Shown piece after piece: positions 2,078 to 7,456 of a stretch of DNA of 64,000 bases. Position 1 is the first letter of the stretch, and every line of letters starts with the position of its first letter. A program made the translations under genes and the position numbers. The notes below the pieces were generated by a model. The model saw only the letters and a list, made by a program, of their open reading frames with translations. It made no database searches and was not told the origin of the DNA. The stretch is from Abditibacterium sp. (GTDB lineage: Bacteria > Armatimonadota > Abditibacteriia > Abditibacteriales > Abditibacteriaceae): NCBI GenBank assembly GCA_965246885.1, contig OZ251992.1, forward strand, positions 3,008,001 to 3,072,000. Reading direction: 5' to 3'.

Positions 2078-2155
2078 TGGCTTTGAGTGTGGCAAGGTCA
2101 GCGCCCCGCCAGAACCGCGCCAATGGTGGGGAGAGCCATTGGATACGCTTTATGG

Positions 2156-2977
2156 ATGCAAACCCTGCTTGTCGTTGGCGGCTCGTTCGACTTCTCCGGC
2201 GATTTCCCTGAACTGCGCGTTGTTCATCGCTCGCTAAGCGGCGCGAAGTGGTTGCTGGGCGGGGAGAACGCGCTTTACTTTCTTGACCGGAGCGGAGCGA
2301 TTCGCGCGGATGCCATCTTGTGGCGCGTCGGGGCGATTCGGGCGCGCGAAGAACATCGGCACGCGCTCGAACTGATTCGCTTGGCGGGCATACCGTGCGT
2401 CAACGCCGCCCAAACACTGCTGCGCGGCTTCGAGCGGTTGTCCATGCTGGCCGAACTGCGCGAAGCGGGCGTGCCGATGTTGCCGTTTTCGGTCACGCTG
2501 GGCGAAGGCGCGCTCGAAGAAGTGGAGCCGGAGTTGCCGTGCGTTCTCAAGGTCGGCAACTGGCATGGCGGCGTTGGCAAGGCGAAGCTGGAGGCGCGCG
2601 AGAACTATTTGGACGCGCGCGATTTGGCGAGCGCGGCGGGAGATTACACGACCATAGAGCCGTTCATCGAATATCGGCGCGACGTGCGAGTTTTGACCGT
2701 CGGCGAGCGGCTGTGGGCGATGGAGCGCGCTTCAAGTGCGTGGAAAGTCAATCGCGGCGACGCGCAGGTGCGCCTTATCGAACCGCCCGACGAACTCGCG
2801 CGCTGGACGAAGCGCGTGCGCGAGCATCTGGGCGCCGACATGCTGGGCTTGGACTGGATCGAAGCGCCGGACGGCGCGTGGTGGTGCCTCGAATCGAACG
2901 ACGTGCCGGGGCTTGCGGGCTGGCCCGACGAGGTGCGCCGCGCATTGGTAGCGAACGTGCGGAACAAAATCGCCTGA
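2156..2977 (+). CDS. RimK-like ATP-grasp ligase
   Basis: PCVLKVGNWHGGVGK, EPFIE..RDVRV and CLESNDVPG motifs. ATG at 2156 is preceded by TACGCT. Confidence 0.8.
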   Translation: MQTLLVVGGSFDFSGDFPELRVVHRSLSGAKWLLGGENALYFLDRSGAIRADAILWRVGAIRAREEHRHALELIRLAGIPCVNAAQTLLRGFERLSMLAELREAGVPMLPFSVTLGEGALEEVEPELPCVLKVGNWHGGVGKAKLEARENYLDARDLASAAGDYTTIEPFIEYRRDVRVLTVGERLWAMERASSAWKVNRGDAQVRLIEPPDELARWTKRVREHLGADMLGLDWIEAPDGAWWCLESNDVPGLAGWPDEVRRALVANVRNKIA

Positions 2978-2987
2978 GCGCCCCGTC

Positions 2988-3017
2988 TTGACAACGCGCT
3001 TCCCGGCGCCTTACAAT
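2988..3017 (+). promoter_or_regulatory. Sigma70-type promoter
   Basis: TTGACA (2988-2993), 18 nt spacer, TACAAT (3012-3017), just upstream of the riboswitch. Confidence 0.8.
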
Positions 3018-3040
3018 CTCTGGGTTAATTTCATAGCGCG

Positions 3041-3159
3041 CCCTTTTGGTTGGGGAAGTCCGGTGCAAGTCCGGCGCTGTCCCGCAACGGTAATGACTTT
3101 GGTCTAAGCCCGATTACCAACCCCAAGGCCGTCACAAAATCCCTGCGCGAGAACAGGGA
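3041..3159 (+). ncRNA. Cobalamin (B12) riboswitch, compact class-II-like
   Basis: GGTTGGGGAAGTCCGGTGCAAGTCCGGCGCTGTCCCGCAACGGTAA...AAGCCCGATTACCAACC: GGGAA box, CCGG-T-loop-CCGG stem, TCCCGC loop, closing GGTTGG/CCAACC stem. A downstream hairpin TCCCTG-CGCGAGAA-CAGGGA (3140-3159) is positioned for the kissing loop. Confidence 0.88.
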
Positions 3160-3279
3160 AGACGAACCCGGCCCGCACCGCTCGTGCGCGGCTTGTCGCC
3201 CTTGGTGGCGCCCGTTTCCCCATTCTCAGCTTGGCTTTTGTGACACGCCCGCAGCCGCGTGCGACGGCTGCCGAGCCAC

Positions 3280-4122
3280 ATGTCACCCACATCCAACCAC
3301 CGCCCGCAACCGGGCCGGAGCGCTTTCACGCTCATAGAAATCCTCGTCGTCGTGGCGATTATCGCCCTGCTCGCCGCCATCCTGTTCCCGGCCTTTGCCC
3401 GCGCGAGGGAAAACGCGCGCCGCGCCAGTTGCCAATCGAACCTCAAGCAAATCGGCCTCGCGTGGATCCAATACTCGCAGGACTACGACGAGAAAATCAT
3501 GCGCTTCTCGACGGGCGCCGATTCCGCTTCCGTCGCTACGCCCGCCAATCCCATCAACTACTGGTGGGGCGGCTACGACGGCACCACCTTCCGCGCCGCC
3601 AACGGCCTCTTGCAACCTTATCTCAAGAGCGACCAAGTGCGCGCTTGCCCCTCGTTCACCGCCGCGCCCGCCAACGCCTACGAAGGCTCGACGGGCTACG
3701 CTTACAACGTCGACACCCTCGCGCCCACCGATTATCCGGCGCCCTCTTTCTCGCCGGTTCCGCGCACCGCCAGCCTTGCCTCGATTCAGGACACCGCCCA
3801 AACCGTCGCGTTCGCGGATTCGGCCCACTTGCGGAACTACGATCCCACCACCTTTGCGTCAATTTCGCCCGCCGTCTTCGAGGCCAATACCTTTCTAAGC
3901 GCGCCTAAAGCGAACTACCCCACTTTCGCGGCCCGTCACCTCGAAACCGGCAATGTCCTGTGGTGCGATGGGCACGTCAAAGCGATGCACCCGTTCTATC
4001 GCACTGGGAGCGTGGGTTTTGGCGCCTATTCTGCTGACGAGCTTCGCTCTTACAACCTCGGCGACATAGACCGCGACGGCGACCTTTCGACCGACGAACT
4101 CTTCAACGGCACCGGCAAGTAA
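3280..4122 (+). CDS. Prepilin-type N-terminal cleavage/methylation protein, DUF1559 family, with H-X9-DG domain
   Basis: [61 protein letters not shown] motif; C-terminal [12 protein letters not shown] loop. Confidence 0.92.
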
Positions 4123-4203
4123 ACAGCGCGACACTTGGGGGCGCCCGAAGACGCACTCAGGTGGCGAAACCGAACGAGGGGGCGCGTGATACTTCCGGGC
4201 ATC

Positions 4204-5415
4204 ATGCGCCCATTGCTCCTTCTCGTCCTGCTCGTCGCGTTGCCTCTGGGCGCGCGGGCGTGTCTCAACGACCGCGACTCCGACGCGCTCGCGGTTCAGA
4301 ACGGCCGCGTTCCCGATGCGTTGCGCGTCGTTAGTGGGCGCTTCGAGCGCAACCCGCCGCGCTTTTATCAAATGCGAATCGCGCGGGTGAGCGGCGAACT
4401 CAAAGTCCATCCGCGCGACTTCGGCTTATACGACGACCTCGCCGTCGCGCACGACAAGTTGGGCGACGACGAGGCGGCCCTGCGCGTCATGGCCGCCAAG
4501 CGCGCCCAGTTGCCCGCCTACAACGCGCACGACAAGGCCAACAAAGAAGCGTGGTATCGCTTCTTCGCCAACGACGGCACCTTCCGCGCCCACCTCTTCT
4601 TGCACGCGGGCGCCCCAGTCGCGGGGTTGGGCGAGATGAAACAAGCGCGGGCGGAGATCGCGCGCGCCCTGCGCATCAAGCCCAACGCCCACTTCGGGCG
4701 CGAGAAGTATCAGGTGGCGGTGATGGATTGGGTGGTGCTCGCCAAAACGGGCAAGACCGAGTTGTCGCTGGGCGACTGGATGCAAGCGCGCTTCAAATGG
4801 GACGGCGGCTACGACTGGCCAAGGCAACCGCTCGCACCGCAAAATCAAGAGGCCGCGCAAGGGTTGGCGGGCCTCATCGTGTTGGGCGCGGCGTGGCGCA
4901 GCCCCGACGTGTTCGACGCCCTCGCAACGGCCTTGGAAGCGCGCCCGACCATCGCGCTGTCGTATCTGGCGCGGCACCGGAGTCAGGAACTGCTCGCAGG
5001 CGGCGCCAAATCTCTTCAGCCCAAAGCCGTTCTGCCGTTGGACGAGTACTGGCTCCGCGACCGGATGGATCGCGGCCTGAACGACACCAACGCCAAGACC
5101 CTCGACGCCTTTTACCCGAAGCTGCGCGCCGATGCCGAAGCGTGGCAAACCCGCCGCGCGGCATGGATGAACGCCCGCTTTGTGCGCGGCGAGCATCCCG
5201 ATACCGATGCCGACTTCTGGCGGGGTTGGCAAGATAGCGCGCCCATGTCGCTCGATGTCGCGTGGTATGACACCCGCGCCGAAACTCAGCGCATAATGCG
5301 CAACGCGAAGTTCATCGCATTGTCAACGGTGTTGGGGGTTCCCACACTGCTTTTGGTCGCCTGCTTCTGGTTCGCGCGCCGTCGCCGCGCCAAGCGCCAG
5401 AACGCTCCCACTTAA
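4204..5415 (+). CDS. Secreted, C-terminally anchored hypothetical protein (TPR-like helices)
   Basis: Signal peptide MRPLLLLVLLVALPLGARA, YDDLAVAHDKLG helix, C-terminal TM segment followed by RRRRAKR. Confidence 0.8.
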   Translation: MRPLLLLVLLVALPLGARACLNDRDSDALAVQNGRVPDALRVVSGRFERNPPRFYQMRIARVSGELKVHPRDFGLYDDLAVAHDKLGDDEAALRVMAAKRAQLPAYNAHDKANKEAWYRFFANDGTFRAHLFLHAGAPVAGLGEMKQARAEIARALRIKPNAHFGREKYQVAVMDWVVLAKTGKTELSLGDWMQARFKWDGGYDWPRQPLAPQNQEAAQGLAGLIVLGAAWRSPDVFDALATALEARPTIALSYLARHRSQELLAGGAKSLQPKAVLPLDEYWLRDRMDRGLNDTNAKTLDAFYPKLRADAEAWQTRRAAWMNARFVRGEHPDTDADFWRGWQDSAPMSLDVAWYDTRAETQRIMRNAKFIALSTVLGVPTLLLVACFWFARRRRAKRQNAPT

Positions 5416-5466
5416 GCGATTGCACTCGCGCCCAACTCGAAGCACACTGCGTTTCTACTTATCTCC

Positions 5467-6405
5467 ATGAAACACCTGCTGCCCTTGTTGCTCCTGTTGC
5501 TCGTGTCGGGGTGCGCGTCGAATCCCGGTGCCGGGTATGCCGGTAAGCAGTTAGCGACCGAGCGCAAGGCGTTCAAAACATCGCTTGTAGCGTCGGGGAT
5601 CGCGCGCGAAGCGGCACCGACCGCGCCGACGGATTTCATGCAAACGGTCAAGTTCCCCGCGCCATCGGGTCAACTGAGCGCCTATCTGAGCTATCCGCCC
5701 AAAGACGGGAGTAAAGTCCCCGGCGTGGTGTGGATAACGGGCGGCGATTGTAACTCCATCGGCTCGGTTTGGGAGCGCGAATCGCCTTCCAACGACCAAA
5801 CGGCCACGCAATACGGGCAGTTCGCCATGATGTACCCGTCGTTGCGCGGCGGCAACGACAACCCCGGCCAGAAAGAGGGCTTTTTGGGCGAAGTGGACGA
5901 CGTGCTCGCCGCCGCTGACTTCCTCGCCAAACAACCGGGCGTTGACCCCACCCGCATTTACTTGGGCGGCCACTCGACGGGCGGCACTCTTGCGTTGCTC
6001 ACGGCGGAAAGCACAAAGCGTTTCCGTGCCGTCTTCGCGTTTGGGCCGGTCGGCGACGTTTCGACCTACGGCGACGACCGCCAGTTTCTGCCCTTCGACA
6101 CGAGCAAGCCCGAGGAGATCGCCATTCGCTCGCCCATCAACTGGCTCCACTGCGTCCAGTCGCCGACATGGGTCATCGAAGGTGACGGGCGCGGCAACAG
6201 CGACCAACTGCGCCTCATGAAAGCCGCGACAAGCAACCCACAACTGCACTTCGTCGAAGTTGCGGGCGCGAGTCATTTCAGCGTCTTGGGCGCGTCCAAC
6301 GGCGTCATCGCTGGGAAAATCGCCGCCGATACGGGGCCAAATTGCAACATCGCCCTCGACGGCGACGAACTCGCCCGCGCAGTGAAAGCGGCGGGGGCAA
6401 CGTAA
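5467..6405 (+). CDS. Alpha/beta hydrolase (S9 peptidase-like) lipoprotein
   Basis: Lipobox LVSGC, nucleophile motif GHSTGG, C-terminal GASHF. Confidence 0.88.
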   Translation: MKHLLPLLLLLLVSGCASNPGAGYAGKQLATERKAFKTSLVASGIAREAAPTAPTDFMQTVKFPAPSGQLSAYLSYPPKDGSKVPGVVWITGGDCNSIGSVWERESPSNDQTATQYGQFAMMYPSLRGGNDNPGQKEGFLGEVDDVLAAADFLAKQPGVDPTRIYLGGHSTGGTLALLTAESTKRFRAVFAFGPVGDVSTYGDDRQFLPFDTSKPEEIAIRSPINWLHCVQSPTWVIEGDGRGNSDQLRLMKAATSNPQLHFVEVAGASHFSVLGASNGVIAGKIAADTGPNCNIALDGDELARAVKAAGAT

Positions 6406-6416
6406 CCGGCGCCTGC

Positions 6417-6962
6417 ATGACCAGACCCACGCGCGAACAACTCCTCGCCGCCGCAGGGCGCACCATGCCCGACATTCTCGCGCCGGGGTTGCGCGTCGCG
6501 TTTTGCGGGATCAATCCGAGCGTTTATTCGGTGGTCGTCGGGCATCATTTCGCGCGGCCCGGCAATCGCTTTTGGCCCGCCTTGTTTGCGGCGGGCTTTA
6601 CTCCGGCGCGCTGGGCGCCTGCCCAAGACCGCGAGTTATTGGGGATGGGGTTGGGCATTACCAACGTAGTGGCGCGCTCCAGCGTGGCGGCGGCGGAAGT
6701 AACGCGCGCAGAGTTCGAGGCGGGCGGGCAACTGCTACGCGCCAAGATGGAGGAGTTCCGACCGGAAGTGCTGGCGGTGTTGGGCATTGGCGCCTACCGC
6801 GCGGCGTTCAATCGGCCCAAAGCGACGCTTGGCTTGCAAGCCGAAACCATCGGCACAACGCGCTTGTGGGTGTTGCCGAATCCAAGCGGCCTTAACGCAC
6901 ACTACCACCCGCCCGACTTAGCGCGCCTGTTCCGCGAATTGCGCGAGTGGGCGGATGAATGA
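6417..6962 (+). CDS. mug: G/U mismatch-specific uracil-DNA glycosylase
   Basis: FCGINPS, HHFARPGNRFW and VLPNPSGLNA motifs. Confidence 0.93.
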   Translation: MTRPTREQLLAAAGRTMPDILAPGLRVAFCGINPSVYSVVVGHHFARPGNRFWPALFAAGFTPARWAPAQDRELLGMGLGITNVVARSSVAAAEVTRAEFEAGGQLLRAKMEEFRPEVLAVLGIGAYRAAFNRPKATLGLQAETIGTTRLWVLPNPSGLNAHYHPPDLARLFRELREWADE

Positions 6963-7046
6963 ATTAGCCACAGATGAACACCGATGGACACGGATAAACC
7001 CCTTCCAAAATCATCTGTGTTCCCCGTGTTCATCTGTGGCTAATTC
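6961..7046. repeat. 21-bp perfect inverted repeat (REP-like; probable bidirectional terminator)
   Basis: GAATTAGCCACAGATGAACAC (6961-6981) / GTGTTCATCTGTGGCTAATTC (7026-7046) between convergent genes. A partial copy lies at 21514-21530. Confidence 0.85.
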
Positions 7047-7456
7047 CACTCCGATTTATCCGTCAAGAAGCAGATGACGGGCAGGAATACGACGACCGTA
7101 TGCAGCAAGCACTGGCCGATTTGCGCCCCAAGCGTCACGCCCGCAAAGCGCGGGGATTTGGTGTAGCTCAAGCGATAGGGCAAGTGGAACGAGAGCAACA
7201 GTAGCACGGCGGCGAGCGTGAGGAAAACCGCGTGGCGCGTCCGTTTGTCGGGGAAAAGGGCGGCAAGCAAGGCGTAGCCGAGCGCGACCAACAGGGCGCC
7301 GCCAACCGTTCCGCTCGTGATTTGCTGGGGCAAGAGTGGCGGATACGTCGGCGGCACGCCGGCAATGCGCAACAGCACAAAGCCAAGCGGCACACAGACG
7401 CACGTCGAAAGGATGGCGCCGAGGGCGAAACGGGAGAACACTTCAGGGAATGGCAT
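7040..7456 (-). CDS. Small multi-pass membrane protein
   Basis: 138 aa from ATG 7456 (MPFPEVFSRF...) with about 4 hydrophobic segments. Confidence 0.7.
   Translation of the reverse strand: MPFPEVFSRFALGAILSTCVCVPLGFVLLRIAGVPPTYPPLLPQQITSGTVGGALLVALGYALLAALFPDKRTRHAVFLTLAAVLLLLSFHLPYRLSYTKSPRFAGVTLGAQIGQCLLHTVVVFLPVICFLTDKSEWN

Follow-up and report, generated by a model that had tools for sequence, protein, structure and literature searches.

Cobalamin (vitamin B12) uptake of the Escherichia coli type is carried out by BtuB–TonB and BtuFCD under the control of a cobalamin riboswitch. In Bacteroides, the surface lipoproteins BtuG and BtuH capture B12 and feed it to BtuB, and they too are encoded in riboswitch-controlled loci. 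Competence type IV pili take up DNA by means of the minor pilin ComP, the PilQ secretin and PilT-driven retraction. The locus described here lies in a 64-kb stretch of DNA (the window) from the armatimonadotal bacterium Abditibacterium sp. (contig OZ251992.1, positions 3,008,001 to 3,072,000). In it, a compact cobalamin riboswitch directly precedes the gene for P0003, a prepilin-type protein of the DUF1559/H-X9-DG family.

Comparison with the BtuB–TonB/BtuFCD system reveals that here too a cobalamin riboswitch would directly control the first envelope component of B12 acquisition, and BtuF-like and BtuC-like genes are present in the genome from which the window comes. In contrast, P0003 is a 280-residue prepilin-type protein with no Plug or beta-barrel Pfam match, and the genome has no recognized Plug gene. 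P0003 would resemble BtuG and BtuH as an accessory envelope protein that captures B12 outside the periplasm; it differs from them in being pilin-like rather than a lipoprotein, and in belonging to a genome in which no BtuB was found. The proposed likeness to competence pili is that of a cargo-recognizing pilin on a retractile fibre that passes through a secretin. The cargo would, however, be a 1.3-kDa vitamin and not DNA, and P0003 has no sequence relation to ComP beyond the N-terminal helix. The pseudopilins GspG, PulG and EpsG share with P0003 a class III signal peptide and the N-terminal helix. GspG binds calcium, and a C-terminal acidic loop is present both in it and in P0003. P0003 is twice as long as these pseudopilins and carries DUF1559 and H-X9-DG features.

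Large DUF1559 families have been described elsewhere. In Planctopirus limnophila, DUF1559 forms the largest paralogue group, with 68 copies, two of them essential and all of unknown function (PMC10632474). A verrucomicrobium encodes a 67-copy family of pulG-like pseudopilins, one copy of which lies in an alginate gene cluster; a pseudopilin over-expressed on alginate was read there as part of secretion (PMC13274419). This family is probably DUF1559. These families are like that of the window's genome in domain and in the number of paralogues per genome. In the relevant passages of the two papers, neither is tied to riboswitches or vitamins, unlike the clade described here, which is tied to a ligand by its riboswitch.

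The explanation that best fits the locus, to which a probability of about 0.5 can be given, is that P0003 is a corrinoid-specific pilin, made under B12 shortage, which stands in for BtuB by way of a secretin and fibre retraction. The broader proposition, that P0003 has a role somewhere in B12 acquisition, is likely. When B12 is abundant, the riboswitch would shut off the P0003 gene. When it is scarce, a prepilin peptidase would cleave the prepilin, which would then become part of a type IV pilus-like fibre passing through a secretin, either within the fibre or at its tip. The globular domain of P0003 would bind cobalamin, PilT-driven retraction would carry it into the periplasm, and the BtuF-like proteins and BtuC-like permease encoded elsewhere would finish import. 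It is the gene context of P0003 that suggests corrinoid binding.

The cobalamin riboswitch proposed in an earlier note on this DNA is well founded. The covariance model RF00174 matches over its full length (positions 1–189) with 36.9 bits, above the gathering score of 31.5 (E 9.6e-6; genome-wide E 1.3e-7). A scan of the whole window with Rfam gave this aptamer as the only match at gathering level, and it is the sole cobalamin riboswitch match in the 3.56-Mb genome. The near-consensus promoter named in the same note was also found, with TTGACA and TACAAT elements separated by 18 nt, and it predicts a transcript start a few bases 5' of the aptamer. Gene-level inspection covered the window up to about 7 kb; two promoter-like sites occur in 2800–7200, against 0.5 ± 0.8 in shuffled sequences. 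The aptamer core columns are identical in nine sequences, those of the window and eight orthologous leaders. Compensatory changes affect four of the 17 predicted aptamer pairs in these nine leaders, all within the variable arm.

The hairpin directly 3' of the aptamer has an aligned counterpart in seven of the eight other leaders, and its position is that at which cobalamin riboswitches carry the regulatory P13 hairpin. Repression by B12 at this locus is assumed by analogy with the general behaviour of cobalamin riboswitches. Judged by eye, 13 of 22 related leaders clearly have a GC-rich hairpin with a U-run after it, while four of the 22 are short, with a post-aptamer hairpin that holds or adjoins the ribosome-binding site. 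The family thus employs termination of transcription as well as control of translation. In the window leader, no canonical terminator was found on the plus strand when 3140–3279 was searched, and in a search of the same interval for a sequestering helix the minimum-free-energy fold was no better than that of shuffled sequences (z −1.25). A crude terminator script flagged 15 of the 22 leaders, its flag for the window leader being weak and doubtful. The window leader does have a hairpin with a CGTGCGA loop shortly before the start codon, and hairpins with a CGYGYGA-type loop recur before the ribosome-binding site in five other leaders (L032, L033, L039, L043 and L044).

The adjacency of riboswitch and gene could be a relic, with a compact aptamer that no longer regulates and a P0003 gene expressed constitutively. 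An aptamer score near the cut-off, the lack of a canonical terminator and a ribosome-binding site that looks weaker than in the orthologous leaders would all be compatible with such decay. The orthologous compact aptamers of the same genus, however, score alike (33.9–40.6 bits) and have the same core, the near-consensus promoter stands just upstream, and the genome, which is B12-dependent, has no other cobalamin riboswitch. Loss of regulation is consequently the least probable of the alternatives considered here, and a very remote one.

The pairing of riboswitch and prepilin-type gene is repeated in related bacteria. RF00174 was searched for in 41 genomes. Besides the genome that holds the window, these include 12 members of its genus, a further 12 from its family and 16 from elsewhere in the phylum. 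The search gave 59 matches, 55 of them over the cut-off, and all 59 loci were scanned downstream with Pfam. The first downstream gene is a prepilin/DUF1559 gene in 22 loci and a TonB-dependent receptor gene in another 22 (21 by Pfam and L009 by a Plug match). Both Pfam families were recognized in 21 of the 22 pilin-first loci, and N_methyl only in L003. The expectation in the earlier note that orthologues would lie behind B12 riboswitches is thus borne out at 22 of 59 loci, to which one metagenome orthologue can be added. DUF1559 accounts for about 2 in 100 genes (62 Pfam matches in the window's genome, which has an estimated 3,000 or so genes), so that chance would give far fewer than the 22 seen among 57 assessable loci. 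The remaining first genes are class I nrdAB (three loci), metE (two), nrdD (one), a BtuF-first transport operon (two), homocysteine methyltransferase with BtuF (one), DUF6580 with BtuF (one) and CobA (one). One further locus (L022) has an ORF of no assigned family followed by a prepilin gene, one has a sub-threshold aptamer without a close downstream gene, and two end at a contig edge.

Six of the 22 pilin-first operons continue into Pfam-verified B12 genes. The pilin gene is followed by Peripla_BP_2 in L007, L008, L044 and L058, by DUF6580 and Peripla_BP_2 in L033, and by CobQ in L059. When the genome contigs were searched with P0003 alone, its orthologue in L060 (65% identity, the closest named relative) and one distant relative were recovered. 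A second, tandem DUF1559 gene is present in four of the pilin-first loci (L026, L028, L048 and L055), whereas the window's genome has the clade member in one copy. Second tandem clade members were seen in four related genomes, among them L048:2056-2910 (−), L055:2136-2942 (−) and L060:1995-2840 (+). The prepilin motif of these second copies is degenerate, with F-A-L-S-E or F-A-P-S-E in place of F-T-L-I-E but with the Glu kept. They may be partner subunits.

The riboswitch-linked proteins also group together. They were aligned (alignment A1), and a profile from which P0003 had been left out gave P0003 305.4 bits, compared with 187.9 for the best of the genome's 64 other paralogues. In a maximum-likelihood tree that included 49 of these paralogues, all 24 riboswitch-linked proteins fall together in a single clade, with a Shimodaira–Hasegawa-like approximate likelihood ratio test (SH-aLRT) value of 99. 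The other 15 of the 64 paralogues stand outside the tree; six score under 90 bits, and the N-terminal motif of nine was missed by the pattern used. With 12 added rows, the B12 clade comprises 29 rows (SH-aLRT 96). The scores of the A1 profile over the 41 genomes are two-humped, with 29 matches of at least 254 bits in 22 genomes, a few at 199–248 bits and the bulk at or below 195. Five of the high scorers lie outside A1, and two of these are tandem second copies behind a riboswitch. A third (L066) has a sub-threshold aptamer upstream (22.6 bits). The contig of L068 starts inside an operon in which the clade member comes after a pair of BtuF-like genes and one for a PduO-like adenosyltransferase, all named here from their translations. 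The fifth is the clade member of L067.

A scan of metagenomes with A1 made use of generic N-terminal patterns and returned mostly generic DUF1559 genes, with one of 80 loci at clade level. The protein at this locus (L072) scores 286.6 bits with the clade profile, and an 88-bit cobalamin riboswitch lies upstream. Amongst 19 background metagenome DUF1559 loci, 18 have no cobalamin riboswitch. The exception is L075 (1080-2331, +), where a divergent DUF1559 protein of 162 bits is encoded directly behind a 70-bit cobalamin riboswitch. The association with the riboswitch thus extends further than the clade sampled here. In the tree, the L075 protein is placed within the B12 clade, on a long branch.

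The gene content of the genome indicates a need for B12. The assembly (3.56 Mb in two contigs) is 92.7% complete, and absences are accordingly given as 'not found'. NrdJ, the class II, B12-dependent ribonucleotide reductase, scores 574.9 bits (cut-off 399.95). A MetH-like ORF of 1250 residues includes a B12-binding domain, and a PduO-type adenosyltransferase has 42% identity to that of a relative. CobA, CobB and CobS were not found with the queries used, nor were homologues of NrdB, CobQ, DUF6580 or the receptors found by tblastn with the queries at hand. Since NrdJ and the MetH-like protein are present and synthesis genes were not found, the organism appears to depend on imported cobalamin. 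The earlier note had asked whether the genome lacks btuB and btuF. For btuB this holds, in that the genome has no Plug-domain match. For btuF it does not, as two BtuF-like Peripla_BP_2 genes and a BtuC-like permease gene are present, none of them adjoining a riboswitch. The missing step would thus be passage across the outer membrane, rather than the whole importer. The same note had allowed for cobalt as the ligand, which is unlikely given that no CobQ, CobB, CobA or CobS was found with these queries.

Components of a pilus are plentiful in the genome, with six secretin matches, eight T2SSE matches, two Peptidase_A24 prepilin peptidase matches and three PilT-family ATPases over the cut-off. 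The genome would therefore have the means for a retractile apparatus resembling a type IV pilus, channels through the outer membrane included. A DUF1559-like gene lies directly after a pilB–pilT–prepilin peptidase cluster (C1:2398241-2405513).

The description of P0003 as a prepilin-type DUF1559/H-X9-DG protein is upheld by four domain models, all over their cut-offs. The matches to PF07963 (N_methyl; 27.4 bits, cut-off 21.2) and TIGR02532 (25.2 bits, cut-off 16.3) both lie at residues 13–36, that to PF07596 (DUF1559) scores 53.1 bits (cut-off 23.3), and that to TIGR04294 (H-X9-DG) scores 22.1 bits (cut-off 19) at residues 216–236. The N terminus has the features of a class III signal peptide, in which E20 (Glu +5) is invariant in A1, as are H220, D230 and H232 near the C terminus. 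Residues conserved family-wide include C51, C123, Y65, D68, W95, P113–Y114, H220 and D230–G231–H232; C51 and C123 probably form a disulfide, and H220 and H232 are common to all paralogues. Others, amongst them F126, G139 and Y142, are conserved in the B12 clade and different in the paralogues, but these clade-specific residues show no obvious cobalt ligand. The C-terminal D-x-D-x-D-G-x5-E loop is found in P0003 alone among the genome's 65 paralogues and is kept in clade members of the same family. By analogy with EF-hands, it is predicted to be a calcium site.

An AlphaFold2 model of P0003 built with A1 has a mean predicted local distance difference test score (pLDDT) of 88.7 and a predicted template modelling score of 0.83, with a pLDDT of 94–95 at residues 251–270. 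It consists of a helix (residues 18–68), then strands and a mostly beta globular part, and predicts a pilin fold in which the long N-terminal helix is packed on a beta-sheet. Comparison with 48,161 representative chains using VIA-align placed type IV pilins and pseudopilins in all of the best 14 rows (Z 3.2–5.6). The top match is Thermus thermophilus PilA4 (Z 5.6, root-mean-square deviation 3.4, 120 aligned residues), the second the DNA-binding minor pilin ComP (Z 5.0, 3.9, 98 residues), and PilV and EpsG come after it (Z 4.5). A profile search of PDB chains gave matches in 21 chains, in the N-terminal pilin helix only. There was no match of P0003 to PF01497 (BtuF/Peripla_BP_2) at E ≤ 0.01.

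Alternatively, P0003 could belong to the pseudopilus of a machine like that of type II secretion, which under B12 shortage could export a corrinoid scavenger or remodel the surface; its part would then be in secretion and not in binding or import. P0003 has weak matches to the GspG, GspH and GspI models, the six secretin matches are accompanied by several GspE-like ATPases, and the verrucomicrobial pseudopilin family was read as serving enzyme export (PMC13274419). The GspG match (TIGR01710), in the N-terminal part, reaches 31.7 bits where the cut-off is 88.85, however, and no candidate secreted B12 binder is co-encoded at the locus or conserved beside the clade. Separate clades matched to B12 and to thiamine, described below, also fit recognition better than a generic piston. 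This function is considered unlikely.

A parallel case concerns thiamine. The sole thiamine pyrophosphate (TPP) riboswitch of the genome (RF00059, 69 bits; L152:1501-1618 (−), equivalent to G000:C1:852282-852399 and outside the window) directly precedes a stand-alone prepilin-type DUF1559/H-X9-DG gene (L152:670-1425, −). Seven of 22 TPP riboswitches in the 41 genomes precede DUF1559 genes, two of which are then followed by a thiamine pyrophosphokinase gene; the Pfam scan of TPP loci covered these seven of 21 assessable downstream genes. The seven TPP-linked proteins form their own clade (SH-aLRT 100), apart from the 29-row B12 clade. Two vitamins, two classes of riboswitch and two matching clades of one family point to ligand-specific acquisition. 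The B12 and thiamine regulons have a single functional category in common, namely uptake.

The thiamine-linked clade bears on a further alternative, that P0003 does not bind B12 and its gene belongs to a B12-sparing response, induced when NrdJ and MetH stall and directed at the uptake of something else, such as DNA or deoxynucleosides, much as B12-independent isoenzymes serve in other regulons. In the relatives, nrdAB, nrdD and metE are indeed also under cobalamin riboswitches, the genome encodes NrdJ with NrdB not found, and the second-best structural match binds DNA. Such a response would nevertheless leave unexplained a thiamine-linked clade beside thiamine pyrophosphokinase. The operon partners, moreover, are BtuF, DUF6580, CobQ and adenosyltransferase, not genes for nucleoside or methionine salvage, and the clade complements BtuB-type receptors. 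A sparing role is therefore considered very unlikely.

This complementarity is seen when the clade and outer-membrane receptors are compared across the 41 genomes. A clade member without any Plug match occurs in 15 genomes (G000, G005, G011, G015, G026, G028, G030, G032 and G034–G040), that of G034 scoring 224 bits only. Three genomes have a clade member and a Plug gene that does not adjoin a riboswitch (G025, G031 and G033), and five have a clade member and a riboswitch-led receptor (G002, G004, G006, G009 and G014). The other 18 have a receptor but no clade member, their best A1 scores being 182–194 bits; the receptor is riboswitch-led in 17 of these, and in G024 the riboswitch lies on a contig end. 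No genome lacks both. Given shared ancestry and several incomplete genomes, this should be taken as a pattern rather than as statistics. What it suggests is a role in crossing the outer membrane, since BtuF-like proteins are kept alongside the pilin-like gene.

The main rival to a B12-retrieving pilus is a membrane-tethered periplasmic corrinoid binder, in which the prepilin helix serves only as an anchor in the inner membrane and no fibre is made. P0003 would then hand B12 to the BtuF-like proteins and the ATP-binding cassette (ABC) importer, and the outer membrane would be crossed by another route. The Pfam identifier of DUF1559, SBP_bac_10, is in keeping with this, as are the operons that pair the pilin-like gene with BtuF and ABC genes. 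The existence of a thiamine-linked clade, though thiamine may pass porins, and the roughly 60 paralogues per genome, which resemble the spread of solute-binding proteins, could be read in the same way. However, with BtuF-like proteins also kept, the job of a binding protein is already filled. The clade, moreover, complements the outer-membrane receptor and not BtuF, and the fold matches are to pilins rather than periplasmic binding proteins. A tethered binder thus has some likelihood, but is clearly the weaker explanation.

Several observations weigh against a corrinoid-specific pilin that replaces BtuB. The five genomes with both a clade member and a riboswitch-led receptor mean that the two are not strict alternatives, and since related genomes are not independent samples, the complementarity looks stronger than the evidence warrants. 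Thiamine is small, so that a pilin-like partner need not mean transport across the outer membrane and a periplasmic role could be envisaged. The high scores of A1 members with their own profile are circular, which the low scores in receptor-only genomes are not, and the background paralogues in the trees come from the window's genome only (49 of 64). The clade member of L067 has no detectable riboswitch. In the window, the leader has neither a clear terminator nor a sequestered ribosome-binding site. The DUF1559 match of P0003 spans profile positions 2–31 only. Position −1 of its cleavage site is Ala and not the usual Gly, the norm for prepilin cleavage sites; within the clade, 11 of 24 members have Ala and 13 have Gly. 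The structural Z scores are modest (below 8), and a Foldseek comparison of the model with the PDB gave no match at E ≤ 0.001, its top rows being pilins.

DUF1559 is among the largest protein families of no known function; a search with nothing but the clade profile finds 428,032 representative proteins at E ≤ 0.001. Riboswitches label a ligand without ambiguity, and two vitamin riboswitches each mark a DUF1559 clade of their own. The two labelled clades make this open annotation problem directly testable through binding, regulated expression and uptake. A full-text literature search, which did not extend to subscription journals and supplements, found no paper in which cobalamin riboswitches or B12 uptake are connected with DUF1559 or with prepilin-type proteins. 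Should the pilus route prove true, small nutrients could be imported across the outer membrane without TonB-dependent receptors. Vitamin exchange and auxotrophy would then have to be predicted differently from the genomes of the Armatimonadota and of Planctomycetes–Verrucomicrobia–Chlamydiae (PVC) bacteria, groups that abound in soils and waters, and genomes scored as having no B12 uptake may simply use the pilin route. A more tentative extension, for which the odds are at present against, is that each expanded DUF1559 family is a set of interchangeable pilins, specific for different ligands, of a retractile importer built on a secretin that replaces TonB-dependent transport in the Armatimonadota and probably the PVC bacteria. 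The B12 and thiamine clades would be the first two specificities to be read, and the other 60 or so paralogues per genome would each serve another nutrient.

Table 1. Features of the riboswitch–prepilin locus (positions in the 64-kb window)
Feature	Position	Strand	Basis or remark
Sigma-70-type promoter-like site: TTGACA (2988-2993), 18-nt spacer, TACAAT (3012-3017)	2988..3017	+	11/12 consensus positions
Cobalamin riboswitch aptamer, compact, very short P6 arm	3030..3139	+	RF00174
Hairpin directly 3' of aptamer	3140..3159	+	6-bp stem in sequence
Leader/expression platform region	3160..3279	+	Without canonical intrinsic terminator
Hairpin with 6-bp stem and CGTGCGA loop, 9 nt 5' of start codon	3252..3270	+	Sequence
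Prepilin-type DUF1559/H-X9-DG protein P0003, 280 aa	3280..4122	+	ORF, domain models
Predicted prepilin leader peptide, residues 1-15, cleavage before F16 of FTLIE	3280..3324	+	PF07963, TIGR02532
H-X9-DG motif, H220 to G231	3937..3972	+	TIGR04294
C-terminal EF-hand-like loop D-x-D-x-D-G-x5-E, residues 262-273	4063..4098	+	Sequence motif
P0004, 403-aa protein	4204..5415	+	Signal peptide, tetratricopeptide repeat (TPR)-like features, no Pfam match

The genes on either side of the riboswitch and P0003 (Table 1) have no relation to B12. Upstream of the riboswitch are genes for an ATP-grasp enzyme and a D-Ala–D-Ala dipeptidase. Downstream of P0003 are those for the TPR-like protein P0004, an S9/alpha-beta-hydrolase lipoprotein and a Mug glycosylase, in agreement with the claim in the earlier note that no btu, cob or metE gene follows. 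A GATACT box is present before the gene downstream of P0003, and the lack of conserved neighbours would fit a monocistronic unit. At its C terminus, P0004 has a membrane helix and, after it, a tail rich in Arg. It was considered as a partner of P0003 and rejected, as its homologues lie at unrelated places in 22 of the 41 genomes (the window's own included). Nor was it retained as a member of a B12 unit; homologues are also present in receptor-only genomes and never in the riboswitch loci that were fetched.

Three other loci have minor features of their own. In L067, ORFs at 958-2154 and 2078-2959 (+) encode a 398-residue membrane protein, which by eye looks PepSY-like in translation, and then the clade member, which has an EF-hand-like loop. 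The riboswitch-controlled nrdA of L036 (1641-4202, +) reads as two ORFs, the N-terminal domain followed by the barrel domain; the gene may really be split, or the break may come from a frameshift or from a mistake in the assembly. In the metagenome locus L113, a generic DUF1559 gene is preceded, probably by coincidence, by an array of clustered regularly interspaced short palindromic repeats (20-561, +; eight repeats, RF01322).

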